A DNA stretch of 39,409 nucleotides. Origin: an uncultured bacterium (GTDB taxonomy: Bacteria > Armatimonadota > Zipacnadia > Zipacnadales > VGFC01). Shown one piece after another: positions 6,158 through 33,110 of this stretch. Made by a program: the position numbers and the translations under genes. A model generated the notes under the pieces. It worked only from the letters and a program-made list of their open reading frames with translations. It was not told the origin of the DNA and searched no databases. The DNA lies in contig CBFDAZ010000002.1 of NCBI GenBank assembly GCA_965602825.1, forward strand, positions 1 to 39,409. Direction: 5' to 3'. Every line of letters begins with the position of its first letter. The stretch's first letter is position 1.

Positions 6158-6186
6158 CGCCCGTGGGCGTTCTCTTGGGGGTCAAG

Positions 6187-12185: not shown

Positions 12186-12347
12186 TCACCGTTTGCGGTA
12201 GTCTTCACAGACGGTCGCGTTCGGTCGCTCCGGGTGTCGGCACGAGCGCGGATGGTCGTACCTACAGGAGTCGCACAGAAACCTGCCCGGGGCGAACGCG
12301 GCGCGCAGTCGCGCAGTAAGCTTGCGCCACCAGTCAGCGACGCCCAT
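12186..12347 (-). CDS. Small Cys-rich protein (53 aa), possible zinc-binding
   Basis: MGVADWWRKLTARLRAAFAPGRFLCDSCRYDHPRSCRHPERPNATVCEDYRKR has four Cys (CxxC...C...C). ATG 12347 overlaps the sigma-GGDEF stop by 14 nt. The track start at 12410 would overlap far more. Confidence 0.4.
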   Translation of the reverse strand: MGVADWWRKLTARLRAAFAPGRFLCDSCRYDHPRSCRHPERPNATVCEDYRKR

Positions 12348-13881: not shown

Positions 13882-13924
13882 GCAGATCTCTCCGTTCAGA
13901 CGACCGGCTCATACCGCCTTGCCC

Positions 13925-15142: not shown

Positions 15143-15190
15143 AGCGAATCTCCCCTATCGGACAATCCCGCGGATTCAGCACGGCTTTCA

Positions 15191-16363: not shown

Positions 16364-16375
16364 GTTTCATGACCT

Positions 16376-18097
16376 CTATTCATCTTGGGCTGCAGTCAAA
16401 GCTTCCTCCAGGGTGGTAATCCCCTGCAGGACCTTCGAGATGCCGTCGCCCTTGAGAGTGACCATCCCTTGCTCCTCGATGGCATACTGCCGAAGCACGT
16501 GGCTTGGGGCTCCCTTGAGGGCCAGGTCGCGGACCTCATCGTCAACGACAAGCAGTTCGTAGATGCCGACGCGCCCGTGGTACCCCTCATCGCACTGACT
16601 GCACCCCTCGCCCCTGAAGAACTGCACCGGCTCCCCCTCCTCGGGCTCAACGCCCGCGACCTCGAGCGCCTCCGAGGGCGGTGTGTACGGTACCTTGCAG
16701 TGGACGCAGATCTTGCGCACCAGGCGTTGGGCGAGTATGCCGGCGAGCGAGGAGGCCACCAGATAGGGCTCAACGCCTATCTCCACCAGGCGGGCCACGG
16801 CCCCTGCAGCGTCATTGGTGTGGAGGGTGCTGAGGACCAAGTGGCCTGTGAGGGCCGCCTCGGTGGCAATGATGGCGGTCTCCTTGTCTCGAATCTCACC
16901 GACCAGTATGATGTCGGGGTCCTGTCGCAGCATCTCGCGGAGGATGCTGGCGAACGTCATGCCCGCCTTCTGGTTCACCGCGCATTGGGTAATGCCGGGG
17001 AGCTCGTACTCGACTGGGTCCTCCGCGGTGATGACGTTCTTGTCGGTTGTGGCGATGCGGTTGAGAGCAGCATACAGCGTGGTGGACTTCCCGCTTCCTG
17101 TCGGCCCGGTTGCCAGGACGATGCCATAGGGACGCAGGATGACGTTCTCGAAGGCCTCCTGGGTCTGAGAGCTGAAGCCGAGCTTGCTCAGGTCTGCCAT
17201 GATCGAGCCTTTGTCGAGAACACGCATGACGACTTTCTCGCCGAACTGGGAGGGCAATGTGGATACCCGGAAGTCAAAGGCCCGATCGTTGAACCGCATC
17301 GCGATCCGTCCGCCTTGGGGTGCCAGCTTCTGGTCGATACTCATGCCGGACATGACCTTGATCCGGCTGACCGCCGGAAGCTGAGCGCCCTTCGGTACGG
17401 TCATGGCATCGCGCAACACGCCATCGACCCGGTATCGGACGCGGACCGACTTCTCCTCGGGCTGGATGTGTATGTCACTCGCCCGCTGCCGGACGGCCCT
17501 GGTGATGATCATGCGCACCAGCTTCACCACTGGCGGGTCGGCAGACGCCGCCTCCGTGTCATCGAGGTCGAATTCCTCATCTTCGTCCTCTTCCTCCAGG
17601 TCGTCCGCGTCCGGCTCGTCGAACTGGTCGAGGAGGCCATCCAACTCCTGTGCCACCCGCACCCTGACATTGCCGAGACCGGCGACCGCAGTCGCGATGT
17701 CTTCCGGCAGGGCAATGCAGGGCTCGATCCGGTACTTGTACTCCGTGCGCAAGCGTATCTGGTCGATGGCGCGGATGTCGTTGGGGTCGGCCATCGCCAC
17801 CTGCAGGGTGCCATCCTGACGAGAGATGGGGATGCAGTTGTGCTTGCGCATTATCGACTCGGGGACAAGCTTGGCTGCGTCCTGGTCGATCTGAAGCTCC
17901 GTCAGATCGACGAAGGGCACATCCCACTGCAGGCCGCGGCAGATTGCCGCGTCCCGCTCGGTGATGTAGCCCATGTTGACCAGGACCTGGCCGATGAACT
18001 CGTCGGTCTCCTTGGCGACTCGTAGAGCATCGTCGAGTTGCTCTTGGGTGAGCGACGTGTTATCTACGAGTATCTGCCCGATCAACCTCTCGTCCAA
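16376..18097 (-). CDS. pilB: Type IV pilus assembly ATPase PilB (GspE family)
   Basis: N-terminal T2SSE_N-type helical repeats. Walker A GPTGSGKSTTLYA. ITAEDPVEY and LVLSTLHTN boxes. Tetracysteine CVHC...CSQC motif. Confidence 0.9.
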   Translation of the reverse strand: MDERLIGQILVDNTSLTQEQLDDALRVAKETDEFIGQVLVNMGYITERDAAICRGLQWDVPFVDLTELQIDQDAAKLVPESIMRKHNCIPISRQDGTLQVAMADPNDIRAIDQIRLRTEYKYRIEPCIALPEDIATAVAGLGNVRVRVAQELDGLLDQFDEPDADDLEEEDEDEEFDLDDTEAASADPPVVKLVRMIITRAVRQRASDIHIQPEEKSVRVRYRVDGVLRDAMTVPKGAQLPAVSRIKVMSGMSIDQKLAPQGGRIAMRFNDRAFDFRVSTLPSQFGEKVVMRVLDKGSIMADLSKLGFSSQTQEAFENVILRPYGIVLATGPTGSGKSTTLYAALNRIATTDKNVITAEDPVEYELPGITQCAVNQKAGMTFASILREMLRQDPDIILVGEIRDKETAIIATEAALTGHLVLSTLHTNDAAGAVARLVEIGVEPYLVASSLAGILAQRLVRKICVHCKVPYTPPSEALEVAGVEPEEGEPVQFFRGEGCSQCDEGYHGRVGIYELLVVDDEVRDLALKGAPSHVLRQYAIEEQGMVTLKGDGISKVLQGITTLEEALTAAQDE

Positions 18098-18119
18098 TGT
18101 CTTCCCCCCGTTATGAATC

Positions 18120-18147
18120 GGGCGGCGGACCTAGCGGCCCGCCGCCC
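18120..18147 (-). other. Intercistronic 9-bp GC hairpin between pilQ and pilB
   Basis: GGGCGGCGG-N10-CCGCCGCCC is a perfect 9-bp stem in the 86-nt pilQ-pilB gap. No U-tract follows on the transcribed strand. Confidence 0.5.
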
Positions 18148-18183
18148 ACTGCTCTTAGGGTGTGCGCCCTGGTTCCCGCTTCG

Positions 18184-21048: not shown

Positions 21049-21069
21049 CGTTGATTCCTCCCACAGTGC

Positions 21070-21131
21070 ATCGTTGCTTTGTCAATACGGCGGCTGTCGG
21101 TTTGTGCTGCGATCGTTGCTGTATCGTTGCT
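21070..21131 (-). repeat. Three direct copies of the 9-mer ATCGTTGCT (AGCAACGAT on the coding strand) in the pilP-pilQ gap
   Basis: Exact copies at 21070-21078, 21112-21120 and 21123-21131. A 7-nt partial copy at 21047-21053 overlaps the pilQ start codon. The local sequence is AT-richer. Confidence 0.6.
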
Positions 21132-21168
21132 ATCTTCCGGCGAACTGGCTGTTCTGCCGCGAGTTGCC

Positions 21169-22122
21169 CTATTCGGTTGGTGGCGATATCCCGGTTGAGT
21201 CCTCAACGACCGGGGCGATCGGTCCCGTCGCCGCGGGCTCCGGCTCGGCAGTTGTCGAGTCAGGCTTCGGGCCCGGTGTCGGGAGCGACAGCTCGTGCTT
21301 CCGGCCCTGGCCCGTGATGGTCAGTTTTCCGGGAGTGATCGTCTCCACCTCGGCCCCGCCCTGGCCGCCGACCTTCTGCCCTGGGCGGACGTACCTGCCG
21401 GGCGCACCGGAGAGATCGGCTGGGCGGACGACCGCCAGAGACCCCTGCGGGCCGCTAATGGTGCCCACAAGCGCGACCGACGGCGCCCGGGAGGCCCGGC
21501 CGCCCCGCCTGACCATCGGGTAGTTGGCCGCCAGAGCCGCTGGGAGACCTGGTTCCCTCGGCTGGCTCACGACCATTCCAGGCGGGAGCGCGGCCGCTCC
21601 GCCAGTCACCGGGCTTGGGAAGGTCGGCGTAGCAGTGGGCAGCGGGATCGGCGGCGGTAGCGAGTCCGGAGTGGACGGCCGCGGTGGCACGGCCGATGGT
21701 TCCGCGGGGCCCGGTCGAGCGCCCGGCCCCGGCGCTGCTGTGGCAAGGTCCGCCAGGGGGTCTCGGCCGGGCGGCGAGACGGAGTCCAGATCCGGCGCTT
21801 CCCTCGGGACACCTGCGGGAGCTGGCTTCGGCGTGCCCGTATCGGCGGGCTTCGCCGGCGTACCTTTGGGAGGCTTCTTGGGATCGTCCTTCTTCTTCTG
21901 AACCACCTTCTTCGCTTTGGGTGGACCCCCAATCCACCCCATTTGTGTGCTGAGCCGTATGCCCGTGAACACCAGCAGCGGGATCCCGATGATGAGAAGC
22001 ACGATCTGCGCCTTCTTCGGGATGAGGTCCTTCGATTTCTTCTGTTTTGGGGTATCCATCGCCGCATTCTCCCCTGAGCCTTTGCCCGCCTGGCTCATCA
22101 AGGCCAAGCCGGGGGGCCGCAT
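21169..22122 (-). CDS. pilP: PilP-like pilus assembly protein with a long Pro-rich linker
   Basis: Located between pilO and pilQ. One TM (IVLLIIGIPLLVF), about 170 aa of Pro/Ala-rich linker, and a C-terminal beta-domain ALVGTISGPQGSLAVVRPADLSGAPGRYVRPGQKVGGQGGAEVETITPGKLTITGQG resembling PilP. The start is uncertain (22122 or ATG 22059). Confidence 0.5.
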   Translation of the reverse strand: MRPPGLALMSQAGKGSGENAAMDTPKQKKSKDLIPKKAQIVLLIIGIPLLVFTGIRLSTQMGWIGGPPKAKKVVQKKKDDPKKPPKGTPAKPADTGTPKPAPAGVPREAPDLDSVSPPGRDPLADLATAAPGPGARPGPAEPSAVPPRPSTPDSLPPPIPLPTATPTFPSPVTGGAAALPPGMVVSQPREPGLPAALAANYPMVRRGGRASRAPSVALVGTISGPQGSLAVVRPADLSGAPGRYVRPGQKVGGQGGAEVETITPGKLTITGQGRKHELSLPTPGPKPDSTTAEPEPAATGPIAPVVEDSTGISPPTE

Positions 22123-22170
22123 CGAGTTTCTCCGCCGGGCGGCCCGAAGGGCTCGAGTGACGCATTCGTG

Positions 22171-22857
22171 CTAGTGGATCTTGATACTCAGGTCGCCCGG
22201 GAAGCCGCCCTGCGGGGCCAGGATGTAGGCTTTCGCCTGCAGCCTGACCTTCGCGGCCGCTCTGCCATCCGGACGCAGTTCCCTGGCACCGGCCTTCTCG
22301 ATCTCAACACTCTCGACTGCGATTACCTTGCCGATCGATCCGAGCTGCTTCAGGAAGTCGAACGCACCCCGGTAGGTGCCGTCGAAGCGCAGCTCAACGT
22401 CCATTTCGTCATAGCGTTGCCCCTGAGCCGTCTCCGTCGCCGCGTTCTTCTCGCCTTCCTTGCCGCCTTCGTCGGCGGCGACGGCCGCCTCGATCAGTGC
22501 CACCTTCCCCTTGACTATCTCCCCCTGCCGCAGCTCGATGAGGTCATTCCCCGTCATGGCGGCGATGTTCTCTATCTGGCGGATCAGTGTAGGCACGTAC
22601 TCCGCTTCAGGGAGAGACCGCTCGATCTCGTTCAGCTCAGCAGCTAGCTTTCCATTCTCCTCCTGAAGCGTGTCAAAGTCAACCCCCTCGATTGCGCGGC
22701 GCAGCTCTGATAGCTCTTCAGCAGCCGCGTTCCGTTCGGCGTAGAGGCTGTAGCTCTGTTTCGCGTGCACCATCACCGCAATGCTCAGGAATACGATGCA
22801 GACCAGGGCGGCTCCGCCGAAAACCAAGAACCGTCTGTTCCTCAGTGCAGCCATCAT
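22171..22857 (-). CDS. pilO: PilO-like pilus assembly protein
   Basis: N-terminal TM, then a coiled coil (AERNAAAEELSELRRAIE...LAAELNEIERSL), then a C-terminal alpha/beta domain. ATGA overlap with pilN. Confidence 0.7.
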   Translation of the reverse strand: MMAALRNRRFLVFGGAALVCIVFLSIAVMVHAKQSYSLYAERNAAAEELSELRRAIEGVDFDTLQEENGKLAAELNEIERSLPEAEYVPTLIRQIENIAAMTGNDLIELRQGEIVKGKVALIEAAVAADEGGKEGEKNAATETAQGQRYDEMDVELRFDGTYRGAFDFLKQLGSIGKVIAVESVEIEKAGARELRPDGRAAAKVRLQAKAYILAPQGGFPGDLSIKIH

Positions 22858-23495
22858 GTGGAGGCTCCCCCCGTGGCCAGAAGTGCCTGGATCTCGAACT
22901 GGTACGTCTCGGTGACTGGGCCGCCGCCGCGCTTGCGCGTATACTGCAGGTAGACGTCCCCGAAGGACGTCGTGGCCTCAAGGTTCTGGATGAACTGGCC
23001 GACGAGACTTCCCGTCGCGGCTTGCCCGGTGAGGGTGAAGCCCTCCCGTGCTGCCGCGGCTGCCGTCTTGGCTCCTACCTGCTTGACCCTGGGGCGCAAG
23101 GTCTTCGACGAGCGAACAACCGTCAGCGTGACCTGCTCGGGAAGGGCCTGGGTCATGTGACTGAGAGCCGCGCACCACTTGGCCTCGCTGTCCCGAGCCG
23201 ACCGCAGCAAATCGATGAGCGGGCGTTTGCTGTCCAACTGCCTCTGTACGACATCGATCCGGGCCTTCTCGTCCTGGAGCTGCCCGATCTCGCCCCGGAT
23301 GGCGTCGAGACGGTCGCGCGTGGCGCGCAGCCGGCTCTGCTGCCAGCTCGCGACGACCATTGCCCCCACGAAGGCCGCCACCGCGACGAAGAAGGCGACA
23401 CGGCCGACAGTCTCGCCCCGTTTCCGCTGGTTTTCGCGTTCACTGATGAGGTTGATATTGATCAACGAACCACACCCCCTGGGCAGCTCGGTCAC
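22854..23495 (-). CDS. pilN: PilN (fimbrial assembly) protein
   Basis: LININLISERENQRKR N-terminal motif, followed by a TM and a coiled coil. Located directly after pilM. Confidence 0.75.
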   Translation of the reverse strand: MTELPRGCGSLININLISERENQRKRGETVGRVAFFVAVAAFVGAMVVASWQQSRLRATRDRLDAIRGEIGQLQDEKARIDVVQRQLDSKRPLIDLLRSARDSEAKWCAALSHMTQALPEQVTLTVVRSSKTLRPRVKQVGAKTAAAAAREGFTLTGQAATGSLVGQFIQNLEATTSFGDVYLQYTRKRGGGPVTETYQFEIQALLATGGAST

Positions 23496-23502
23496 GGCGG
23501 TT

Positions 23503-24681
23503 CTATCCAGACGCGGCAGCGACCGGCAATGGGTGCGCCTCCGGCTGGCTGGCGAGCGGGTAGGCCCGCGATTCCATTGGCTCCCGCAACGCGAGGCCGG
23601 CGGCCACCGTGAGATAAGGGGACAAATCCGTCAAGAACCCCTGATCGTACGAGGGCGCCTCCAGCCCTGTGTCTCGAAAGACGTCGGTGATGACGACCTC
23701 GGTCCCGAGCCTCATCTGAAGGTATTGTTCCAGCCGCGGGAGCCGGCAGACGCCACCGCTGACGACCACCCTATCGGCCCCCGCCAGGGCACCGCCGGAC
23801 TGGAAGGTGTTTGCCAGGAAGTTGAGTGAGGTCTGGGTGTCCCTGACGATCTCCTCCAACACCGGCGCGATTGCCTGGCTAACCTGCTGTTGCTCTTCGG
23901 GCAGGGACTCGATCTCCTCCGGCGCGCAGGCTACCGCTCGCGACTCCTTTATCCTCCTGGCCTCCTCCGGGTCCACCGAGAAGGTCGAGACGATCGCCTG
24001 ATCCATACTGAGTCCAGCTATGGGGACGATCCGCGGGAAGGCGAAACACCCCTTCCATACGATGGTCATCTCAGTGAAGGACGCTCCGATGTGCAGCAAC
24101 AGAAGCGTTTGGTCGAAGATGGCGGGATCGGTGTTGGCGTAGACCTGCGCCCTGAGCACGGCGAACTGCACTGTGTCCATCACTGACGGCGTGAGTCCCG
24201 CGATCTCCAGGGCCTGAACGCGCCCCTCCATCGCCTCATGCCGGGCCGCCACCAGCAGCACGTTCATCTGCGGGTCCTGGCTGTCGGGATCCAGTATCTG
24301 CCACGCGATCTCGCCCTCCTCGACGCCGAACGGGATATGCGGGCGTGCCTCGTAAGGCATCGCCTTCGCCAGCGTCTTGGCGTCCCGTCTGGGCATCTGC
24401 AGGCGTGTGGCGACCAGCGACGGATCGCTGACAGCACAGGCGGCCAGCTTGGCGCGGCTGCCCGTGGACCGCAGTAGCTCCCGGATCACGTCGCCCACTA
24501 TGATGGGGTCCACGACCACGCCATTCAGTACGGCGCCGGGCGGGGTCGGCGCCATGCCCACTCGCGTAGCGACAGCTTTCCCGCCTTCGACCTCGCACTC
24601 GACGAGCTTGATCGAAGTGCCGCCGATATCGATGGCAACGCTGGCGGGTTGCCCGAAGATCATGTCCAGGATCTTTGCCAT
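23503..24681 (-). CDS. pilM: PilM, actin-like ATPase of the T4P alignment complex
   Basis: VAIDIGGTSIKLVE phosphate-1 motif. LLHIGASFTEM and VVSGGVCRLPRL match the PilM/FtsA-like fold. Confidence 0.85.
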   Translation of the reverse strand: MAKILDMIFGQPASVAIDIGGTSIKLVECEVEGGKAVATRVGMAPTPPGAVLNGVVVDPIIVGDVIRELLRSTGSRAKLAACAVSDPSLVATRLQMPRRDAKTLAKAMPYEARPHIPFGVEEGEIAWQILDPDSQDPQMNVLLVAARHEAMEGRVQALEIAGLTPSVMDTVQFAVLRAQVYANTDPAIFDQTLLLLHIGASFTEMTIVWKGCFAFPRIVPIAGLSMDQAIVSTFSVDPEEARRIKESRAVACAPEEIESLPEEQQQVSQAIAPVLEEIVRDTQTSLNFLANTFQSGGALAGADRVVVSGGVCRLPRLEQYLQMRLGTEVVITDVFRDTGLEAPSYDQGFLTDLSPYLTVAAGLALREPMESRAYPLASQPEAHPLPVAAASG

Positions 24682-24703: not shown

Positions 24704-25213
24704 CTAGGCAGCCGGAACGGCAGCGAGACGCTCCAGAAGCGTGCACAGGAGTTCGTTGATGCTCGACTGGCTCTCGGGATCGATCTCGACGACGGGTGCG
24801 CTCTCCGGCACGCCCAGAGCCGCTCTGGTCACTTCGGCATCCTGGCCTCCTGCGACGGCGAACACTCCCTCCGGAGCCCGGCCGGCGTCCAGAAGGGCCC
24901 TCAGATCGCGCGCCAGACTGAGGTCCATCGGGCCCGGCCCGACGACCATGCAGTACCCCGCGCAATCCGCAGCCAGCGCCTGGCAAACATACTCGCGCCG
25001 CCACCCTCCGTCGACAATGAACACGTACAACGCCAGACCCTCACGCACGTCAATCCGGCCGAAGTCGACCGGGCTGGCGGCTCTGTCCGGGGCCCCCAAC
25101 ACGTCATCGGCCGCCGGGCCGCGTTGGGCCACCACGAACTCCCGCCATGTGGTCAGCAACTGACGCCGCACCGGTTCATTGGTCACGATCACCAGGACCT
25201 TCACCCTTGTCAT
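24704..25213 (-). CDS. Ras/MglA-like small-GTPase fold lacking P-loop and NKxD (candidate pseudo-GTPase)
   Basis: ATG 25213 is preceded by GGGGAGAG. DFGRIDVREGLALYVFIVDGGWRRE resembles the beta2-beta3/G3 region of small GTPases. YCMVVGPGPMD and VFAVAGGQDAE occupy the positions of the beta4 and NKxD strands. The N-terminal KVLVIVTNEPVRRQ replaces GxxxxGKT. The track ORF from 25522 is an over-extension. Confidence 0.45.
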   Translation of the reverse strand: MTRVKVLVIVTNEPVRRQLLTTWREFVVAQRGPAADDVLGAPDRAASPVDFGRIDVREGLALYVFIVDGGWRREYVCQALAADCAGYCMVVGPGPMDLSLARDLRALLDAGRAPEGVFAVAGGQDAEVTRAALGVPESAPVVEIDPESQSSINELLCTLLERLAAVPAA

Positions 25214-25244
25214 GAGCCGATCTCTCCCCTGCGCCCCAGTTCCC

Positions 25245-25940
25245 CTACGGATGAGCGCCCGATGCAGTCCGTAGGTACTCAATGATCGCCCGGATGTCGT
25301 CCGGACTGGGCAGTGCATCCGCCTCGACGGCGTCACGGGAGGGCACTCCCATGTCTGCCGACGATTCGCCGTCGCTGTGTGCCGACAGCGGACTGGCCTC
25401 GCTCTGAGCGGTGGCGAGCTCCACGACACCGAGCTCGACCAGGTGCCCGAGGGCGGCGTATGCATCCTCCCAGTCCAGCCCGCTGCCCGCAGCGATCTCG
25501 CCCAAGGTGTGCCTGCCGTCAACGAGATCGAGCACGACCCTATCCGTCTGGGTCAGTTCGGCCGGGTCAGCCTTCGCGGCGTCGATCAAGTATGGCCTGG
25601 CAGTCGGTTGCCCGAGTAGCTTTTTGGCGTACGCCAGACCATCCAGGCGGCGCGCGGCGGACAGCAGGATCGATTGCACATCGTGCTCGATCGTCCGCTC
25701 GGGGGGCACCTCCTGGGCCTGGAAGTTGAATGACCCCGCGCGACGGGCGAGCAGACCGAACACCGCATCCTCGCCACGGTGGACCCCGTCAAAGGCGTCG
25801 ATGATCCTTCCCTTCTCGAGAACCAGTTCCGTCGTGTGCCCACTGTCGAGCACCCGCAGGATCCCGGTCTTCCCGCCCATGGCCAGGATCTGGAGTACAT
25901 CCTCAGGATCGGTTTCGCTTAGACTCCCACGAAGTGCCAA
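25245..25940 (-). CDS. DUF4388 / PATAN-domain protein
   Basis: LRGSLSETDPEDVLQILAMGGKTGILRVLDSGHTTELVLEKGRIIDAFDGVHRGEDAVFGLLARRAGSFNFQ matches the DUF4388 pattern (GxL....dllQ.l....tG.L.v......f..G.i..A.....G..A......w..G.F.F). TTG 25940 lies 7 nt after GAGGGA and 10 nt after the upstream stop. Confidence 0.6.
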   Translation of the reverse strand: MALRGSLSETDPEDVLQILAMGGKTGILRVLDSGHTTELVLEKGRIIDAFDGVHRGEDAVFGLLARRAGSFNFQAQEVPPERTIEHDVQSILLSAARRLDGLAYAKKLLGQPTARPYLIDAAKADPAELTQTDRVVLDLVDGRHTLGEIAAGSGLDWEDAYAALGHLVELGVVELATAQSEASPLSAHSDGESSADMGVPSRDAVEADALPSPDDIRAIIEYLRTASGAHP

Positions 25941-25950
25941 GGCAAATCCC

Positions 25951-26484
25951 TCACGCCTGATGGGGTGCGGACGACTCGCCCGCTTGCGGCCCCTCTTGAG
26001 TCGGTTCCTGCTTGAAGAACTCCCGGTCACCCAACTCCGGCACACCGGCCTTCACGCTGCGGCTGCGAATGCGCTCCATGACCGGGCGAAGACCGTTGGC
26101 CGCCTCCGAGGCGTACAGGCGCACCAGACCCAGTGTGGTCCGGTCGTCGAAGGCTGCCAGCAGAAGCGCCGCTTCGCCAACGACGGAGAGTTGCATGTTC
26201 TGGTCCTCACCCTCGTGGAAGAGCACCGTGAACGACTCCTCCCCGATCAGCTTGGCGACCTGCTCGGTGGCTGCGAAGGCCGCCGCGGAGAGGGCGGCCA
26301 GCTGGTCCCCGGTACCCTTGCGCGAGTAGCCACGCTCCGCGATGACCTGTCCGCTGCGGTCGATCAGGATCGCCATGCTCGCCCGTGAGGCCGCCAGAAA
26401 CGCATCCAGGCGCTCGGCAAGAGCGACGGCGTCTTCCTCGTAGATCACCAGACCCTCGAGACCTTCTAGACCTTCTAGAGACAA
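25951..26484 (-). CDS. Roadblock/LC7-domain protein, second MglB-like paralogue downstream of mglA
   Basis: AERLDAFLAASRASMAILIDRSGQVIAERGYS...LSAAAFAATEQVAKLIGEESFTVLFHEGEDQNMQLSVVGEAALLLAAFDDRTTLGLVRL follows the Roadblock alpha-beta-beta-alpha-beta pattern. TTG start with GGAGGTGA 6 nt upstream. Confidence 0.65.
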   Translation of the reverse strand: MSLEGLEGLEGLVIYEEDAVALAERLDAFLAASRASMAILIDRSGQVIAERGYSRKGTGDQLAALSAAAFAATEQVAKLIGEESFTVLFHEGEDQNMQLSVVGEAALLLAAFDDRTTLGLVRLYASEAANGLRPVMERIRSRSVKAGVPELGDREFFKQEPTQEGPQAGESSAPHQA

Positions 26485-26530
26485 GCCCGCTCACCTCCAC
26501 GGAGCCCGAACGCGGCCCGCGAGTTCGTAT

Positions 26531-27121
26531 CTATGCGGCTCTCAGTTTGGCCATCACCAGCTGGCATATGGCGTTGAGGCTATCGAAGACGCCCTTGCCC
26601 TCCGTCGCGATTGAGGCGAACGTCGGCTTCAGTTGCTCCTGTCGATTGAGGGTGTAGTCGAGATAGTGTCCGGGAGCGATGTTGGGCAGGTCCTGCTTGT
26701 TGTACTGCAGGATGTACGGGATGGAGTCAAGGCTGTACCCGTACTGGCTCAGGTTCTCGATCATGTTCGCAAAGCTCTGCAGGTTCTCTTTGGTACGGGA
26801 CCATTGCGAGTCGGCGACGAAGATGATTCCGTCAACACCCCGCAGCACGAGCCGACGAGTCGCGTTGTACACGACCTGTCCGGGGACAGTGTAGAGCTGG
26901 AACTTCGCGGTGAATCCCCCTACGTTCTGGGCCTCCAACGGCAGGAAGTCGAAAAACAGCGTCCGGTCGCCCTGGGTCGACAGCGAGACGAGACCGCCCT
27001 TATCCGTGGCGGGAATGTGCTGGTGGATGTACTCCAGGTTGGTGGTCTTCCCGCACATAGCGCACCCGTAGTAGACGACCTTGCAGGTAATCTCGCGTTG
27101 TGCGTAGTTGATCGACGCCAT
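26531..27121 (-). CDS. mglA: Ras-like GTPase MglA
   Basis: MASINYAQREITCKVVYYGCAMCGKTTNLEYI...DRTLFFDFLPL...FQLYTVPGQVVYNATRRLVLRGVDGIIFVADSQ...ILQYNKQDLP is near-colinear with Myxococcus MglA as I recall it. It includes the intrinsic Arg (DRTLFFDF), TVPGQ in place of DxxGQ, and NKxD. GGAGGA precedes ATG 27121. Confidence 0.9.
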   Translation of the reverse strand: MASINYAQREITCKVVYYGCAMCGKTTNLEYIHQHIPATDKGGLVSLSTQGDRTLFFDFLPLEAQNVGGFTAKFQLYTVPGQVVYNATRRLVLRGVDGIIFVADSQWSRTKENLQSFANMIENLSQYGYSLDSIPYILQYNKQDLPNIAPGHYLDYTLNRQEQLKPTFASIATEGKGVFDSLNAICQLVMAKLRAA

Positions 27122-27149
27122 GGTACTTGGTTCCTCCGCTGTCCTGCTC

Positions 27150-27593
27150 TCAGGCCGGCGTGCTGCTATCCTCATCGTCGGAGGCCGGCTGGCCCGCGTC
27201 TTCGGACGAACCCGCCTGTTGAGGCTCATCGGCGGAGGGCGTGTGCAGTTCCGTCGAGAGCACCTCGGCGGCTTTCTCCACCTCCATGCGCAGCAAGCCA
27301 GTGTTGGCCGCCTGGTCCGTGATGGCCACCACAAGGCCCCGCGCGGCGTCCGCCATCACCAGGTTGCCGCTCGCAGCGCCAAACATCGCCATCTGCATTT
27401 GCTCGCCGCCCGCGCTGCGTAACAGCTTCTTGGCAGTGCGGCCGATCTCCGCTGCCATGGCTGCGACCTGTTCATCCTCCGCTGCCCCAACGGCGCTCTG
27501 CGAGGCGATGTTGATGCCGTCGTAGGAGCAGAAGACAGCCGCCCGAACGCCAGCCACCCGTGTTACCTGATCCAGCACCTCGTCGATTCTCAC
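27150..27593 (-). CDS. mglB: Roadblock/LC7 protein in the canonical MglB position, with an acidic C-terminal tail
   Basis: IDEVLDQVTRVAGVRAAVFCSYDGINIAS...GNLVMADAARGLVVAITDQAANTGLLRMEVEKAAEVL is a Roadblock fold. Immediately upstream of mglA. GTG start with a GTGA overlap onto the upstream stop and a GGGAGAG SD. Confidence 0.7.
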   Translation of the reverse strand: MRIDEVLDQVTRVAGVRAAVFCSYDGINIASQSAVGAAEDEQVAAMAAEIGRTAKKLLRSAGGEQMQMAMFGAASGNLVMADAARGLVVAITDQAANTGLLRMEVEKAAEVLSTELHTPSADEPQQAGSSEDAGQPASDDEDSSTPA

Positions 27594-28582
27594 GGTGGGC
27601 TCTCCCGTTCGAACTGCGTGTTGTCAGGCGAGTCACACAACTCCGTTCCGGCCGGCGGGTCCGGCGGGCGGAGTTGCTCGGCCCGGGCCACGAGCACGGG
27701 GAGTATCACCTCCGCCACCTCGCGAGCCCCGGGCTCGGGTCCTATCAGGCATCCAGTGAGCCTTCCGCCGGGCACGGCCAGCAGTTCGTATCCTCCCAGG
27801 GCCGCGTGCAGCATGGACGGGGCCTCGGTGACGGGCCCAGCCAGTCGCCCCAGATCACGCACCAGTTCGGGCAAGACCGCGGCGACCCTCGATGCGTCCA
27901 GGCTCCTCGGCTCCACCGCCGCCACCACAAGCCCATCGCTCGTTGCCAGTAGTCCGCCCTCGCACCTGGCCGCCTGGGTTGCGAAGCGCACCAGTGTCTG
28001 GTGGTCGTCCGCCTGCAGTCGCTCGATCGCGCTGGCGTAGGTCGCCAGGCGCCCAGCGCGATCCGGCGCCTGCTCCGGCTCCCGGCACGTCGACACGGGA
28101 GGCGCCGGCAGATCCTCGGTCAGGGGGGGGCGCGGCGGATTCCCGTGGCGACCGACGGCGACGACGGGTTCGGGTTGGTCTCCCCAGGCCAACGACGACA
28201 CTCCGATGCTGTACCCCACCTGCAGCACCGCCATAGGCAGAGAGCCGGCTCCCGCCCAAAGGGCGACGTCCGTGGTGTCAGCAGGCGCCGAAGCCAAGGT
28301 GGCGCTCGCCAGACCCACCGTGACCCCCAACAGAGCATGGCCGAGCACCATGCTGCCCCACCACCGGATGAACATGCGGCCTCCCCTACCCCGGGAGCCA
28401 CGCCACGCCAGGGCCGCATAGAGCAGAGCGGCGGCCGCGCCCAGCACGCCCGCATTCACCGGCGGCAGGCTGCCCCCATCACGCACAGCGGACGATAGCT
28501 CGATGCCCAGCAGCAGTATGCCGATCGAGAGGCACGCGATCAGGCCGGCGGTTATCCCGCTACCGAGCCGCTCACCCGACAT
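27590..28582 (-). CDS. Membrane protein (about 4 TM) with a C-terminal Roadblock/LC7-like domain
   Basis: The N-terminal 150 aa are hydrophobic helices. The C-terminus LVRFATQAARCEGGLLATSDGLVVAAVEPRSLDASRVAAVLPELVRDLGRLAG...GGYELLAVPGGRLTGCLIGPEPGAREVAEVI fits the Roadblock pattern. 11-nt overlap with the upstream gene. Confidence 0.55.
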   Translation of the reverse strand: MSGERLGSGITAGLIACLSIGILLLGIELSSAVRDGGSLPPVNAGVLGAAAALLYAALAWRGSRGRGGRMFIRWWGSMVLGHALLGVTVGLASATLASAPADTTDVALWAGAGSLPMAVLQVGYSIGVSSLAWGDQPEPVVAVGRHGNPPRPPLTEDLPAPPVSTCREPEQAPDRAGRLATYASAIERLQADDHQTLVRFATQAARCEGGLLATSDGLVVAAVEPRSLDASRVAAVLPELVRDLGRLAGPVTEAPSMLHAALGGYELLAVPGGRLTGCLIGPEPGAREVAEVILPVLVARAEQLRPPDPPAGTELCDSPDNTQFERESPP

Positions 28583-31500
28583 CGCCGGGCATTCCTTCCT
28601 TGCGTGCTGAATCGTTGCACATCCTGACGATCTTGGCTGTCTCGGTGCCTACCAGTCCCGGGTTCATGCCCGGGGCGAAGCCTGCCACAACCAGCGCGCC
28701 GGCTCCCTCCGCCGGGGCCAGGCCGAGCGTTCGGGTCGATCCCATCACGAGCAACCGATCCGCACCCCCCGGCTGGGCCCGTTGGGCCGCCTTCCAGACC
28801 GCCTCCGACGCCGCCGCTGTCTCCGGCGTGGGCTGTGCCTCAAACCCGGACGCGACCACACCGAAGCCATCCTGACTGCGGAAGCCGCCTGCCTGTTGGC
28901 CGACGATTGCCGCGATTCGCCGCAGTCGCTCATCCTCTACCGGCTGCCCGTCGGGTGGGCCGGCCAGCGCGTCCTCGCAAGGCCTCTCTGCAATCTCGAC
29001 GGATTCGAGAACCGCCATGGCCTTTCGCGCTGCCACGGTGGCCTGTCCCGCGCTTGCGTTGTTGATTGCCACGACAAGCTGAGGCGCTCGCGGATTGTCC
29101 GGGCTGCCGACGAACGTGGTTGCTTGCGTACCGATCAGCAGTGCAGAACTGAAGCTGCCCGCGTCCGTATGGGCAACGATGTGTCGGCTGCTCCTGACCA
29201 ACTCCGCGAGGTTGTCGGCCTGTTCCGCGCTAATCTCAGGTGAACTGTGGGCGACCACGATTGAGGCGCCATTGGCCCAAAGAAGCTCCACTCCTCTGCA
29301 GTCAACGCCCTTGAGTGCGGCGCGGAGATCGTCCTCAATCCCGGCATCGATCGTGACCCGCGCCAGTTCGGGCTCTGCGAGGGGCGCTTCCTCCTCGGGG
29401 GCCGATGCCTGCTCTGCCATCGCCGGCTCGGGGGCGAGAGCCGCCTGGGGCTCATCGTAAGAGACCTGTGCGGGCGGTGCCTCCTCCTCAACCGGGCTTG
29501 TCTCTTGCTCGGCGGCAGGAGGCGGTTGGTGCTCCGACAGGGGCTGCAAGCTGGGAGGCGCCGCTTCGGCCGGAGCTTCCGCGTCAGACGCGGGCGCCGC
29601 CGGTGCGACATCAGCGGCCTCGTGCTCGGCGGAGGCCCTCTCTTCGGCCTCGTCTTCCTCCTCCTCCTCGGAGCGCTTCTTCTGGAGTGCGGCGATAGCC
29701 GATGAAATGACCTGCTCCCCGACTCGGTTGGGAGGGGTCTGCAGCAAGGGTGTCGCCGCGTCAGTCGGCGCTTCCTCCTCCGGCTGGTCCATCGGGTCTC
29801 GCGGTGGTGTGACGATGGGCGGCTGCGCTGCCTCCGACGGTTCGGGCAGCCGCTCCTCGCCGGTCTGGTCGGTTGGCGGTTGATCGGCAGCAGTCTCCGG
29901 CTCGCCAGGGCTCACGGTCACCGAGGGGGCGGCTTCCGGAATCTCCGCTGACACGGGGGCCGCGGCCGGTTCCTCCACCGGAGCCGGCTCCTCCTGAGTA
30001 TCGACCGCCAGCGCGGGTGAGGCAGGCGGCGCTGCCGCGACCGGTGCCTCCTCGGCTGGTGGTTGGGGAGCCGGCTCCTCCTGAGTATCGACCGGCGGCG
30101 GCGCGGGTGAGGCAGGCGGCACTGCCGCGACTGGGGCCTCCTCGGCCCGTGGTTGGGGAGCTGGCCCGTCGGAGTCTTCACGGAAGATGGGCGGCTCGTC
30201 GGTCAACGCCTCCGGTGCCGCCTGATCCGGGGGCGCAGCGAAGAAGTCCAATGGGAGTCGCGCGACGATCTCTGACAGCGGTAGCTCGATGCCCTCAGCC
30301 GGCAAAGTGTTCAGGAACTCGCCCGCTGAGGCAGCGAGGACCTCGCGGGGCATTTGGCCCAGTAAGGTGGCACCCGGCACTCGCACCTCGCCGCGCTCGA
30401 GTTGGGGAGCGATTGTCTCCCACTCAAACGAGAAGCTGCGCTCCGGCAGCCTTTCAACCACTTCCTCAGCCGGCCGGTTCAGTAGTTCGGCCGGCAGGAG
30501 GTCGAGTAACACCTCTCCCGGCAGCTTGAGGGCGCCGGTTGTCGTCGGGTCGGCGACGGGGACCGGCGGTTGGGCCTGATCTTCCGTCGGCTCGGCTACC
30601 GCGGCTTGCTCGGGAGTCACTTCAGCCACCGCAACGGGCTCTGCAGGGGTCTCGGCCGTTGGCGATGGTTCGGCGACCGGCTCGGCCTCGATCTGGACCG
30701 GCTCCTCAGGCTCCACTGGTTGGTCGATGGTCAGCTCCCCGAGCATCGGCGCGGTCGGAAGTGGCTCGCCGGGGGAGGGCTGCGGCTCAACCTCCGCCAC
30801 CGTTTCGGGCTCGTCCATGGATGAGGTGAGGACCGGCTCGGGCTGCGGCGTCACCAGCGGCGGCTCGGGTGCCGGCGGCGGGAACTCCCCGAGTTCCTCC
30901 ACAACCGGGGGGCCCTGCAGCAACTCGGCCGGCGGCGCCTGCACTGGCTCCATCGCGGGCGGCCCGGCCGTGTCCACTGGGGTCTCCGGCAGTTCGTCTT
31001 CCGGTGCCGTCTCGCGCTCCACACCGACAGCAGACGGCGCCTCCGGTATCGCCTCAGATGGCTCCGTCACCGGAAAGGTCGGGAGGGTCTCGGGGTGGCT
31101 GATCGGCTCCTGGATCGCTGAAGCCTCACCCGCGTGCGCCACCACCTCTGGCTCGACCACATCCGGCTGTTCGAGCTCTGGAGGCGGGGCCACGGGAGGA
31201 ACGGGCGCTTCGCCCGTCTCAGGCAGCGACGGCTGAGTCTCGGCTGGCGCTGGCTCCGCTGTGGCGACCTCCGTGGGTACCACAGCCTCGCCCCCCGACC
31301 GGTCGGACATCAGTTCCTCGAGCAACTCATCGTGGGAGCGTGTGGCGAACGGCGGCGGCGCAACCGGGACGGGTGCTTCCCGGTGTTCGACGGCCCGCCG
31401 CATGGCGATCACTCGGAAGCAGTAGACGGCCGCGGCAACACAAGCGATCTCGCCGATGGCGGCGGGCCAGTGAGCGGCCCAGAACAGCTTCAGTCCGCCG

Positions 31501-31844
31501 ATGAGGTCGCTCTCCCCGCCAACGACCAACAGCAGCGCGCACAGAGCCACCACAAAAAGCCGCATGAGCATCCCGACTGCGAGACGGCACAGAGCGTGGA
31601 TCAGATTGACGCGGGCGAGGGGGGGCAAGAATAGCGTCAGCGTGTAGGCCGAGACCTCCAGTCCCAGTATCGCCCCCCACCAGCGTTGCCAGTTGGGCTC
31701 AATGCGAACACTGCCCTCAACGACCAGGGCGGTGGAGATCGCGAGGGATGAGAAAAAGATCGCCCATACGGTCGGGCTCGCACCGGACGTCTCCGCATGT
31801 CCCCGCGCCCTTGACTCAGTGGCCACTGTTGTCTCCCTCCGCAT
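28572..31844 (-). CDS. 1090-aa membrane protein: N-terminal TM bundle, about 600-aa Pro/Glu/Ala-rich disordered region, two C-terminal Roadblock-like domains
   Basis: About 4 TM within residues 20-150. Long PE(A)-rich low-complexity tract with an internal tandem repeat. C-terminal LKGVDCRGVELLWANGASIVVAHSS...SSALLIGTQATTFVG...QLVVAINNASAGQATV and AGGFRSQDGFGVVASGFE...DRLLVMGSTRTLGLAPAEGAGALVVAGFAPGMNPGLV each fit the Roadblock pattern. The start is ATG 31844 or GTG 31826, the latter with GGAGGGAG 6 nt upstream. Confidence 0.6.
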   Translation of the reverse strand: MRRETTVATESRARGHAETSGASPTVWAIFFSSLAISTALVVEGSVRIEPNWQRWWGAILGLEVSAYTLTLFLPPLARVNLIHALCRLAVGMLMRLFVVALCALLLVVGGESDLIGGLKLFWAAHWPAAIGEIACVAAAVYCFRVIAMRRAVEHREAPVPVAPPPFATRSHDELLEELMSDRSGGEAVVPTEVATAEPAPAETQPSLPETGEAPVPPVAPPPELEQPDVVEPEVVAHAGEASAIQEPISHPETLPTFPVTEPSEAIPEAPSAVGVERETAPEDELPETPVDTAGPPAMEPVQAPPAELLQGPPVVEELGEFPPPAPEPPLVTPQPEPVLTSSMDEPETVAEVEPQPSPGEPLPTAPMLGELTIDQPVEPEEPVQIEAEPVAEPSPTAETPAEPVAVAEVTPEQAAVAEPTEDQAQPPVPVADPTTTGALKLPGEVLLDLLPAELLNRPAEEVVERLPERSFSFEWETIAPQLERGEVRVPGATLLGQMPREVLAASAGEFLNTLPAEGIELPLSEIVARLPLDFFAAPPDQAAPEALTDEPPIFREDSDGPAPQPRAEEAPVAAVPPASPAPPPVDTQEEPAPQPPAEEAPVAAAPPASPALAVDTQEEPAPVEEPAAAPVSAEIPEAAPSVTVSPGEPETAADQPPTDQTGEERLPEPSEAAQPPIVTPPRDPMDQPEEEAPTDAATPLLQTPPNRVGEQVISSAIAALQKKRSEEEEEDEAEERASAEHEAADVAPAAPASDAEAPAEAAPPSLQPLSEHQPPPAAEQETSPVEEEAPPAQVSYDEPQAALAPEPAMAEQASAPEEEAPLAEPELARVTIDAGIEDDLRAALKGVDCRGVELLWANGASIVVAHSSPEISAEQADNLAELVRSSRHIVAHTDAGSFSSALLIGTQATTFVGSPDNPRAPQLVVAINNASAGQATVAARKAMAVLESVEIAERPCEDALAGPPDGQPVEDERLRRIAAIVGQQAGGFRSQDGFGVVASGFEAQPTPETAAASEAVWKAAQRAQPGGADRLLVMGSTRTLGLAPAEGAGALVVAGFAPGMNPGLVGTETAKIVRMCNDSARKEGMPGDVG
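29981..30159 (-). repeat. Tandem duplication (88 + 91 nt) inside the giant gene
   Basis: gagccggctcctcctgagtatcgacc...ggttgggg occurs twice back to back (29981-30068 and 30069-30159) with a 3-nt indel and a few substitutions. It encodes EEAPVAA(V/A)PPASPA...VDTQEEPAP twice, in frame. Confidence 0.85.
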
Positions 31845-31868
31845 TGGCTGGCTAGCGCCGATCCTGGT

Positions 31869-32696
31869 CTAGTGCTGGAGTCTGGCCAGCAGATTCCTGG
31901 CCGCCTCGATCTGCATGTTCACCAGACCGAGCCTCGCCCTGGGCTTCGTCGCCACGACCAGAAGGCCCGGCTTGGCCGGAGCAAGGATGAAGGTGGCACG
32001 CTCGCTAAGCACGGTCGCGTGCTGGAGTGCCCCTAATTCCAGTTTTACCATGCATCTCTTGGCCAGTTGCCATGTTTCATTCGCCCTGGCGGAGAGCCCG
32101 GCTTCCACCGACTCCATCCCACCCCGGCTCCCAATGGCCAGACCGGTGTCGTCGACCCAGACTGCTCCCTCGACCCCCTCTGTCTCGATGAGTAGATCCA
32201 GAGCGCGCTGGATAGGCGCAGCCGCCCGCTCCTGGGCCTGGGGCTGCGAGGCCAGGGGCGCCGCGATCGGCACGGCTTCCTGACCACAGGCTTGCGCCAG
32301 GAGACCTCGCGCGGTTGAGTCGCCGGGAGCCAGGAACAGAGCGTGCTCCAGGTGCTCGCGAGCCTCGGCCGCCGCTCCACGCTCAAGCAATAGCCGCCCC
32401 AGAGCCACCCGGCAGACACGGTTGTGGGGTTCCGCGGCGATGACGGCTCGCAGCTCTGCCTCCTGCCGCTCCGAATCGCCCTGCGCCTCACAGACCTGGG
32501 CCAGGACGACCCGGGTCGTCGTGTACGCGGGGTAGCGCGCAATGCACTGTTCGCATACCGAGCGTGCCTCCAGCACACGCCCCTGCTTCAGGAGCAGCTC
32601 AGCCAACTGCGCGAACGTCAACGGGTCTTCCGTCCGCTGCAACTCAGCCGAGAGTTGGCGGATCAAATCGCCTTCGGATCGCGAACGCCTAGTCAT
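31869..32696 (-). CDS. TPR-repeat protein fused to a C-terminal Roadblock/LC7 domain
   Basis: N-terminal TPR-like hairpins (FAQLAELLLKQGRVLEARSVCEQCIARYPAY; GDSERQEAELRAVIAAEPHN; GAAAEAREHLEHALFLAPGD). C-terminus LIETEGVEGAVWVDDTGLAIGSRGG...ATVLSERATFILAPAKPGLLVVATKPRARLGLV is a Roadblock pattern. ATG 32696 is preceded by GGAGAGGAG. The track start at 32780 is less likely. Confidence 0.6.
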   Translation of the reverse strand: MTRRSRSEGDLIRQLSAELQRTEDPLTFAQLAELLLKQGRVLEARSVCEQCIARYPAYTTTRVVLAQVCEAQGDSERQEAELRAVIAAEPHNRVCRVALGRLLLERGAAAEAREHLEHALFLAPGDSTARGLLAQACGQEAVPIAAPLASQPQAQERAAAPIQRALDLLIETEGVEGAVWVDDTGLAIGSRGGMESVEAGLSARANETWQLAKRCMVKLELGALQHATVLSERATFILAPAKPGLLVVATKPRARLGLVNMQIEAARNLLARLQH

Positions 32697-32885
32697 GCTT
32701 CGGCGCTCCTCTCCCATGCGGCGAGTCTTACTGGGAACGCGGCCAGGGAACCAATGGCCGACATGTGCGCCCAAACGCACAGGTGCCGCGCTCCAATGAA
32801 CCGTCCGGAACCGAGCGGGAATCTACGTCACGAAGAGGAATGCGAATCGCCCTCAGTAGCGAGACGCTACAAAGGTCGATCACGT

Positions 32886-32972
32886 GAAGGTACCCGCTTC
32901 GGCTCTTGCTGCATTTTTTTGCTGTGTCGTAGACCGCGATTGTCGCCGTGTCGAAATGCTGTATGTACCTTC
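32886..32972 (-). other. Nested-helix structured segment within the long 5' leader of the Roadblock/mglA/pil block
   Basis: An 8-bp perfect inverted repeat, GAAGGTAC (32886-32893) and GTACCTTC (32965-32972), encloses a 6-bp pair GCATTT (32911-16) and AAATGC (32954-59) and a GCGA-ttg-TCGC hairpin. The segment also holds a T7/A7 run and two GTGTCG direct repeats. It is clearly AT-richer than its surroundings. Confidence 0.4.
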
Positions 32973-33012
32973 TCGGGCCAGGCCCCAGCGGTGCGGGGCC
33001 CGCAACAGCGGG

Positions 33013-33041
33013 ATCATACCACATGTCCGGGGCAAAGTAAA
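33013..33041 (-). promoter_or_regulatory. Candidate sigma70-type promoter with extended -10, facing the Roadblock/mglA/pil block
   Basis: On the - strand: TTTACT, then 17 nt, then TATGAT, with TGg immediately 5' of the -10 (tttactttgccccggacatgtggtatgat). The next downstream gene start is 32696. Confidence 0.5.
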
Positions 33042-33054
33042 CCTCTACAGGGCC

Positions 33055-33084
33055 AAAAAAACGCTCAAGGTGAGTTGCCGAGCG
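33055..33084 (-). terminator. Weak terminator-like hairpin plus U7 after the FAD-oxidoreductase gene
   Basis: On the - strand: CGCUC-N13-GAGCG followed by UUUUUUU (an A7 run at 33055-33061 on +). The stem is only 5 bp and competes with a 7-bp alternative hairpin (33080-86 with 33106-12). Confidence 0.35.
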
Positions 33085-33110
33085 GGACGCTCACATTGGT
33101 GCGGCCCCGC

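Follow-up and report, generated by a model that had tools for sequence, protein, structure and literature searches.

Introduction

MglA and MglB are the model of Ras-like polarity control in bacteria, a model worked out almost entirely in Myxococcus, where the components are soluble. Debate continues over how this switch is fixed at the poles and linked to the pilus machine. We analyzed 39,409 nucleotides of DNA from an uncultured bacterium of the Armatimonadota (GenBank assembly GCA_965602825.1, contig CBFDAZ010000002.1, positions 1 to 39,409), a stretch called the window below, in which an eight-gene block encoding MglA, several Roadblock proteins, a PATAN protein and a second Ras-like protein runs directly into the genes for a type IV pilus (T4P). 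An earlier reading of the same DNA, referred to here as the original prediction, had described this block and proposed that it encodes a membrane-tethered Roadblock platform. Comparison of sequences and gene orders indicates a scope wider than that prediction supposed: the block belongs to a conserved, multi-phylum module and is not a one-off.

The closest described system is that of Myxococcus xanthus, in which MglA-GTP promotes the formation of T4P by way of the TPR protein SgmX and PilB and in which MglB is the GTPase-activating protein (GAP) of MglA (PMC7519303). MglC, itself a Roadblock protein, brings MglB to the pole (PMC4719450, PMC13408092), and the genes mglC (MXAN_5770) and sgmX (MXAN_5766) are found beside the pil locus MXAN_5772-5788 (PMC4719450, PMC7519303). 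MglA and MglB also affect pilus polarity in Thermus (PMC12024867). Roadblock domains act as dimers, and stacked Roadblock heterodimers occur at the membrane in Ragulator-Rag (PMC3747258). A 2014 survey of prokaryotic small GTPases described the neighborhoods of group 1 MglA genes as variable, with PATAN genes only occasional (PMC4316618). The association of PATAN genes with mglA and mglB, which the original prediction had mentioned, is already in the literature, being attributed to Makarova 2006 as cited in that survey (PMC4316618).

Results and Discussion

The eight-gene block and its canonical MglA

The block occupies positions 24704-32696 on the minus strand. Its genes, in the 5' to 3' order of transcription, are the following.

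31869..32696, minus strand: gene A, TPR repeats plus C-terminal Roadblock/LC7 domain, 275 aa (Pfam)
28572..31844, minus strand: gene B, 1090-aa membrane protein with transmembrane (TM) bundle, disordered spacer, island and two Roadblock-like domains
27590..28582, minus strand: gene C, 330 aa, four TM helices (aa 3-133), linker and Roadblock-fold domain (AlphaFold2, AF2, and Foldseek)
27150..27593, minus strand: gene D, stand-alone Roadblock/LC7 protein of generic type, 147 aa (Pfam Robl_LC7 9.5e-11, above cut-off)
26531..27121, minus strand: mglA (gene E), active-type Ras-like GTPase, 196 aa (phmmer to M. xanthus MglA)
25951..26484, minus strand: gene F, MglB orthologue (Roadblock GAP), 177 aa (phmmer and Pfam)
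25245..25940, minus strand: gene G, PATAN/DUF4388 domain, winged-helix-like domain and conserved C-terminal helix, 231 aa (Pfam)
24704..25213, minus strand: gene H, Ras-fold pseudo-GTPase, 169 aa (AF2, Foldseek and alignment)

All eight genes were confirmed at these coordinates, and the measured junctions bear out the overlaps, the short gaps and the same-strand run into pilM described previously: A/B +24, B/C -11, C/D -4 (GTGA), D/mglA +28, mglA/F +46, F/G +10, G/H +31 and H/pilM +22 nt.

The mglA product aligns to M. xanthus MglA over residues 1-194 with a phmmer E-value of 1.5e-65. Its P-loop GCAMCGKT, the switch I segment DRTLFFDF with the intrinsic Arg, TVPGQ with the catalytic Gln, and NKQD all align with those of the M. 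xanthus protein, so the canonical MglA with intact motifs described earlier is upheld. The coupling to an MglB-type Roadblock gene by which group 1 is recognized is found as well, F beginning 46 nt downstream. Judged by alignment and neighborhood, the product is a group 1 MglA-type GTPase.

Gene F matches M. xanthus MglB at E 7e-21 (residues 12-145) and T. thermophilus MglB at 3.5e-15 by phmmer, and Pfam Robl_LC7 at 2.5e-10 (40.4 bits, cut-off 23); from these scores we take it to be the true MglB orthologue of the locus. A profile of the D family, built from 16 sequences, found in the PDB an archaeal Roadblock protein at E 6e-18, CvnB5 at 3e-12, MglB at 6e-9 and MglC (7ct3) at 6.5e-3. D was considered as an MglC orthologue and rejected, the profile being nearer to archaeal Roadblock and CvnB5 than to MglB or MglC. 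MglA had been described as bracketed by two Roadblock genes. Both are indeed Roadblock genes, but because F is MglB and D is generic, they are not equivalent.

Roadblock carriers A, B and C

Six Roadblock domains in five proteins (A, B with two, C, D and F) accompany the one active GTPase, and the count of six given earlier is upheld. A, D and F score above the Pfam cut-off, C was assigned by AF2 and Foldseek, and the two domains of B by hhalign at about 93%. Pfam, a hydropathy scan and AF2 likewise recover the TPR-Roadblock fusion, the 1090-aa protein, the 4-TM protein and the DUF4388/PATAN protein as these had been described. The parts of B and C are located as follows.

31401..31775, minus strand: B aa 24-148, hydrophobic bundle, about four TM helices (Kyte-Doolittle, 19-residue window, three or four segments)
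30177..30557, minus strand: B aa 430-556, conserved island domain, function unassigned (local jackhmmer and alignment)
28995..29342, minus strand: B aa 835-950, Roadblock-like domain 1 (hhalign against the D family 92.7%, E 4e-7, 108 columns)
28611..28937, minus strand: B aa 970-1078, Roadblock-like domain 2 (hhalign against the A Roadblock domain 93.6%, E 2e-7)
27671-28060, minus strand: C aa 175-304, cytoplasmic Roadblock-fold domain (AF2 and Foldseek)

Protein A matches Pfam TPR_19 at 7.5e-14 and Robl_LC7 at 4.3e-6 (26.8 bits, cut-off 23). By hhalign its Roadblock domain is closely paralogous to D (E 1e-21 with the D family), and counterparts of A are kept in loci of Armatimonadota, Zixibacteria, Ignavibacteria, GN15 and Methylomirabilota.

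Protein C has no Pfam hit. Its AF2 model, built with nine homologues, shows TM helices at residues 3-34, 41-62, 68-96 and 103-133, then a disordered linker, then a C-terminal domain with the order alpha-alpha-beta-beta-alpha-beta-beta-beta-alpha at a pLDDT of about 70-85. The best Foldseek matches of the model in the PDB are almost all MglB or other Roadblock proteins (E 8e-5, target-normalised TM-score 0.6-0.7) and include Rag C-terminal domains and LAMTORs. An iterated jackhmmer search seeded with C converges on every Roadblock protein of the collected loci.

Full-length B has no Pfam hit either. Both flanks of its TM bundle are basic, so that by the positive-inside rule the N- and C-termini would be cytoplasmic. 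A relationship between this bundle and the TM bundle of C was considered and found unsupported (hhalign 1.5%). Residues ~150-830 form a spacer of ~680 aa rich in Pro, Glu and Ala, which we read as a disordered tether. Its length appears free to vary, since the B homologues that sit at the same position in other Armatimonadota range from 780 to 1110 aa. A tandem duplication at 29980-30165, with 2.1 repeats of a 90-bp unit (89% match), lies in the spacer a short way downstream of the island. The C-terminal 260 residues are conserved and split into the two Roadblock-like domains; a profile of this region had two matches below E 10 in the PDB, both of them Roadblock proteins (E 0.014 and 0.04). 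Taken together, these models and scans predict that B and C are integral-membrane proteins with cytoplasmic Roadblock domains.

The island within the spacer of B is ~130 aa long, carries the motifs R-[IL]-P, PQL.xGEV.V, LPL.EIV..LP and P.IF, and has no Pfam hit. It is rare: exhaustive HMMER searching of 1.84 billion representatives found 49 clusters, mostly proteins of ~700-1600 aa with 1-11 matched stretches. (A word-index protein search returned zero matches, the protein itself included, and the cluster count is taken from HMMER.) The island occurs once in the clade of the window, and twice in tandem in B-like proteins of deeper Armatimonadota and of Methylomirabilota. Within it, the string LLDLLPAELLNR may resemble the N-terminal PilM-binding peptide of PilN, a likeness that we do not use as evidence.

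A PATAN protein paired with a pseudo-GTPase

Protein G matches PF14332 (DUF4388/PATAN) at 2.7e-19, with 69.8 bits against a cut-off of 25, as do 10 of 10 homologues. The second domain gives weak winged helix-turn-helix (wHTH) matches. An assignment of this C-terminal domain to DUF742, the family of CvnC, was sub-threshold (E ~0.03 in two of ten homologues), and we treat the domain as generically wHTH-like.

Protein H had been described as Ras-like and lacking a P-loop, and both points were borne out. The AF2 model, from 22 homologues, has pLDDT 84 and pTM 0.81 and follows the Ras topology beta1-alpha1-beta2-beta3-alpha2-beta4-alpha3-beta5-alpha4-beta6-alpha5. Its top Foldseek matches are Rab1b, KRAS and MglA (E ~4e-7, TM-score 0.6-0.73). 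In the alignment of the 22 homologues the beta1-alpha1 loop reads V/A-T-N/S/D-x without Gly-Lys, so that the G1 motif GxxxxGK[ST] is absent; the G4 position (NKxD) is unconserved; and in the place of G3/switch II, where Ras has DTAGQEEY, there is an invariant VDGGWRREYVC. At the sequence level H shows no Pfam hit, its PDB profile search returned noise, and hhalign against the MglA family gave 1.5%, so the Ras assignment rests on predicted structure. Having a Ras fold and no P-loop, H is designated a pseudo-GTPase, and is predicted to be a second, nucleotide-dead GTPase fold in the module. A degenerate receiver domain was also considered, given the start KVLVIV and the frequent fusion of PATAN to receiver domains; the beta2-beta3 hairpin, the six-strand Ras topology and the GTPase matches in Foldseek rule it out. 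The original prediction had named a fold check of this kind beforehand, and by it the non-canonical proteins come out as Roadblock or Ras folds.

In the loci examined, H always lies between G and pilM. In one relative (L004, 4896-6122) G and H are fused as a single open reading frame (ORF) of 409 aa, a Rosetta-stone arrangement implying joint action of G and H.

Conservation of the block in Armatimonadota

A neighborhood survey, also called for by the original prediction, found the gene order conserved in many relatives. It is kept in ~20 independent contigs, which places the arrangement far beyond chance. The order A-B-C-D-mglA-mglB-G-H-pilMNO-pilP-like-pilQ-pilB is found in every relative with a long enough contig, down to 46% identity of C, and all 12 of the metagenome loci retrieved with an H profile keep D-mglA-mglB-G-H-pilM over the part covered by the contig. 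Two ENA contigs encode the identical MglA and share the gene order, and the nearest MglA in GTDB genomes belongs to Armatimonadota metagenome-assembled genomes, at 80% identity. Three distant Armatimonadota loci (L012-L014) keep the order; two of these, L012 and L013, have a shorter, 2-TM analogue of C, and two islands in their B protein.

The C family is small, with 9 clusters at 90% identity among 5.8 billion, and a pattern-based scan of GTDB with the C-family profile returned no relative, missing distant Armatimonadota copies that phmmer found in MglA-seeded loci. The H family comprises 26 clusters; those with a source name are all from Armatimonadetes, and H is confined to Armatimonadota.

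A common core in other phyla

In Zixibacteria, Ignavibacteria and GN15 the order is PATAN (~410 aa), TPR-Roadblock, a protein of 326-356 aa, a D-type Roadblock, mglA, mglB and pilB-pilT-pilC, and shorter contigs, one of them from Acidoferrum, show parts of it. Across the PATAN and wHTH parts, hhalign (99.3%) identifies the PATAN proteins of Zixibacteria and Ignavibacteria as orthologues of G. The 326-356-aa protein has about four N-terminal TM segments and a Roadblock-like C-terminus (hhalign 90-92% to the D family and to the A Roadblock domain), and such a 4TM-Roadblock protein was found in 16 of 16 loci from Zixibacteria, Ignavibacteria, GN15 and Acidoferrum that have a protein at that position.

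Methylomirabilota carry the same parts rearranged, with fusions of receiver domains to PATAN and to Roadblock domains. Here mglA and mglB are sometimes followed by pilB, and the D-type Roadblock and TPR-Roadblock genes are divergently transcribed. A B-like protein of 1039-1275 aa has two islands, two Roadblock-looking C-terminal blocks and N-terminal hydrophobic, TM-like segments, as checked in locus L020. In that locus a PATAN protein (4561-5850) and a Roadblock protein (5854-6627) have N-terminal receiver domains (Response_reg 8.7e-11 and 3.5e-22, respectively), which suggests two-component input into the module in that phylum.

By architecture and position, the core of PATAN, TPR-Roadblock, 4TM-Roadblock, Roadblock, MglA and MglB is present in at least four other phylum-level groups, rearranged in Methylomirabilota. 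The original prediction knew of no description of this architecture. That part stands: a full-text literature search, in which not every journal is covered, found no description of TM-Roadblock proteins, of a TPR-Roadblock fusion, of the pseudo-GTPase or of a multi-phylum pilus-linked module. The architecture is not, however, peculiar to this locus. Its linkage to T4P persists though the adjacent pil genes differ (pilM in Armatimonadota, pilB elsewhere), which argues for a functional link; on this basis of synteny, a functional link of the module to T4P is well supported.

The pilus operon and flanking genes

The genes downstream of H, together with the one regulatory site proposed, are these.

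33013..33041, minus strand: promoter-like site, TTTACT-17-TATGAT with upstream TG (consensus scan only)
13925..24681, minus strand: T4P genes, pilM to pilC (Pfam), comprising
23503-24681, minus strand: pilM (Pfam)
22854-23495, minus strand: pilN (Pfam)
22171-22857, minus strand: pilO (Pfam)
21169-22122, minus strand: pilP-like gene (labeled from its position and a reading of its C-terminus; no Pfam hit)
18184-21081, minus strand: pilQ (Pfam)
16376-18130, minus strand: pilB (Pfam)
15191-16366, minus strand: pilT (Pfam)
13925-15154, minus strand: pilC (Pfam)

From ~33041 down to 12334 every plausible gene is on the minus strand, in the order A, B, C, D, mglA, F, G, H, pilM, pilN, pilO, pilP-like, pilQ, pilB, pilT, pilC and a sigma-70/GGDEF fusion. 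Intergenic gaps among the pil genes are at most 87 nt. The promoter-like site is separated from gene A by a leader of ~320 nt, within an intergenic region (32697-33110) of ~410 nt. A consensus scan found four terminator-like sites on both strands, with 5.6 expected from shuffled sequence, and none between H and pilM. With gaps of -11 to +46 nt and a single upstream promoter-like site, the eight genes and the pil genes have the appearance of a tight operon.

Neither the window nor the leader ahead of gene A matches an Rfam model at gathering score, the one hit obtained being at chance level (E 0.81). The same intergenic region contains a T-run directly past the end of the upstream gene, an FAD-oxidoreductase gene unrelated to the module. 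G+C content of the window is 63-70%, calculated in 2-kb windows. The pilP-like product, of 317 aa, combines a single TM segment with a long stretch rich in Pro and a C-terminus that is short and conserved, and is kept at the same position in all the Armatimonadota relatives. The last gene (12334-13908, minus strand) encodes a 524-aa protein with sigma-70 regions 2, 3 and 4 and a C-terminal GGDEF diguanylate cyclase domain; it may share the transcription unit of pilC, as it is on the same strand and its frame begins 16 nt after pilC. Farther away and unrelated to the module are a gene for an ArsA/Get3-type ATPase with a C-terminal HSP20-like domain (6157-7374, plus strand) and, upstream of it at 3317-6136, two ORFs of ~450-485 aa with no Pfam hit.

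Proposed mechanism and alternatives

We lean toward reading the module as a T4P regulatory module around the MglA switch, in which a membrane-anchored Roadblock scaffold positions MglB/MglA at the pilus machine. In such a module MglA-GTP would most likely promote pilus assembly or extension, and F, the MglB orthologue, would be the GAP of MglA. A, B, C and D would form the Roadblock scaffold, held in the inner membrane through B and C, which would recruit MglB and/or MglA and place them next to the PilM/PilB portion of the machine, and so fill the role that soluble MglC and RomR have in Myxococcus. Through its TPR part, A could serve as an effector link to PilB of the SgmX kind, B may extend its tether and island as far as the PilM/PilN/PilB region, and G, with its PATAN and wHTH domains, could form with the pseudo-GTPase H an adaptor pair on the same platform. 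The hetero-association of one Roadblock protein with another, and hence any heteromer in the scaffold, the binding partner of MglA and the direction of regulation are points that we infer.

The membrane-tethered platform of the original prediction is partly supported and plausible. It agrees with the prediction that two integral-membrane proteins carry Roadblock domains on the cytoplasmic side and with the invariant linkage to T4P genes, and the recruitment of MglB by MglC in M. xanthus provides a precedent (PMC13408092, PMC4719450).

Several observations weigh against a scaffold of this kind. The Roadblock assignments in B are the weakest of the set, coming from profile-profile scores of shallow alignments. 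Confidence in the model of C is no more than moderate (mean pLDDT 58), its TM region being predicted from nine sequences. No homology is detectable between C and the 4TM-Roadblock proteins of Zixibacteria and Ignavibacteria (hhalign 0.2%), so that only architecture and position are common to them, and the membrane Roadblock could be convergent or could have diverged beyond detection. No RomR, RomX or RomY is encoded in the locus, homologues elsewhere in the genome being possible. Finally, the docking geometry of Rag-Ragulator is not simply transferable, because MglA has no Roadblock domain of its own.

The membrane Roadblocks might have a quite different task. B and C, with D or A, would then be an exchange factor for guanine nucleotides (GEF) or a sensor that loads MglA with GTP at the membrane, opposed by the GAP MglB. 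Eukaryotic Roadblock and longin platforms act as GEFs (PMC3747258), the module has no gene of the RomR/RomX type, and the role of RomRX as GEF is now disputed, which leaves the source of MglA-GTP open (PMC13408092); the receiver domains on the PATAN and Roadblock proteins of Methylomirabilota suggest signal input. Yet among prokaryotic Roadblock proteins exchange activity has been reported for MglB alone, and TM bundles with essentially no periplasmic loops offer little for sensing, so we think this role unlikely.

It is also improbable, in our judgment, that each Roadblock carrier homodimerizes and serves as a separate effector or adaptor without any shared platform, A for example linking MglA-GTP to PilB and the island of B contacting PilM or PilN. 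MglB, MglC, CvnB and Asgard Roadblock proteins do crystallize as homodimers (PDB entries), the tandem domains of B could pair with each other, and a TPR protein is an established effector of MglA (PMC7519303). Joint function nevertheless explains more easily why four to five Roadblock genes are strictly inherited together in fixed order across phyla, and MglC-MglB shows that Roadblock dimers do associate.

The scaffold reading can be carried further, to a bacterial counterpart of Rag-Ragulator, a form that strikes us as doubtful and that we offer as speculation. A stacked hetero-oligomer of six Roadblock domains, held at the membrane by the bundles of B and C, would pair MglA with H on the cytoplasmic face of the T4P machine, with the tether and island of B reaching PilM or PilB. 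The pilus-embedded form might be ancestral and the soluble Myxococcus module derived from it; that the core is common to Armatimonadota, Zixibacteria, Ignavibacteria, GN15 and Methylomirabilota is the reason for thinking that the membrane-bound form may be the ancestral one.

A conservon-like G-protein cassette, which would control something besides pili and lie beside the pil genes without functional link, is very improbable, for even though the succession of F (Roadblock), G (wHTH, with weak DUF742 matches in 2 of 10 homologues at E ~0.03) and H (GTPase fold) echoes cvnB-cvnC-cvnD (PMC13343842) and D is nearer to CvnB5 than to MglB, the block has no histidine-kinase-like CvnA and no HATPase or HisKA domain by Pfam, the DUF742 matches are sub-threshold, the GTPase, an MglA of the group 1 type, closely resembles the motility protein, and the T4P linkage persists across phyla despite differing neighbor pil genes.

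Significance

These loci represent a widely distributed form of the MglA/MglB system in which the switch lies inside the pilus operon, together with membrane Roadblocks, a TPR-Roadblock fusion and a PATAN adaptor, and, in Armatimonadota, a pseudo-GTPase. If the scaffold functions as proposed, it would explain in concrete, testable terms what places MglB and MglA at the T4P machine in bacteria other than Myxococcus. It would also be a prokaryotic membrane-anchored Roadblock scaffold for small GTPases, with a bearing on the origin of platforms of the Ragulator and longin type. Three uncharacterized families are brought forward for study: the 4TM-Roadblock proteins, the island domain of B and the H pseudo-GTPase.

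Comparison with known systems

The polarity module of M. xanthus (MglA, MglB, MglC and RomR/RomX/RomY, with the effectors SgmX, FrzS and SopA) is the closest system, MglA and MglB being orthologous. The two systems have in common extra Roadblock proteins beside MglB, a TPR protein tied to MglA and pili, and T4P control as the likely output. They differ in that the M. xanthus components are all soluble, whereas here two Roadblock carriers are predicted to be integral-membrane proteins, one of them with a disordered tether of ~680 aa. Where M. xanthus has two Roadblock proteins, this locus has five, with six domains, and D among them is no orthologue of MglC. The TPR repeats share one polypeptide with a Roadblock domain, PATAN and the pseudo-GTPase are fixed members, mglA and mglB lie inside the pil operon, and RomR, RomX and RomY are absent from the locus. 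The position of mglC and sgmX beside the M. xanthus pil locus may be a remnant of the same arrangement.

Ragulator-Rag (LAMTOR1-5 with RagA/B-RagC/D) is similar in bringing several Roadblock domains and Ras-like folds together at a membrane, and the Foldseek and profile matches of C and D include LAMTOR2 and Rag C-terminal domains. Even the numbers run parallel, six Roadblock domains and two GTPase folds (MglA and H here, two Rags there), a parallel to be taken as coincidence until the stoichiometry is known. The anchor here is a predicted TM helix bundle, and there a lipidated LAMTOR1. The Rags dock through a C-terminal Roadblock domain of their own, which MglA (196 aa) and H (169 aa), each a single domain, do not have, and H is predicted to be nucleotide-dead. 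Ragulator-Rag is best regarded as an analogue, with no evidence of orthology.

The actinobacterial conservons (CvnA-D; Mfp in mycobacteria) are likewise operons with a membrane protein, a Roadblock protein, a small wHTH-like protein and a Ras-like protein. The present locus differs from them in the absence of CvnA, the sub-threshold score for DUF742, an MglA of group 1 in place of CvnD, and the linkage to T4P.

The cyanobacterial PATAN regulators of T4P (PixG and PatA-type; bioRxiv 10.1101/2021.06.11.447907) resemble G in that PATAN is encoded with T4P genes, and those proteins are reported to contact the pilus motor. Unlike them, G lacks a receiver domain and has a wHTH-like domain, and it is paired, and in L004 fused, with a pseudo-GTPase.

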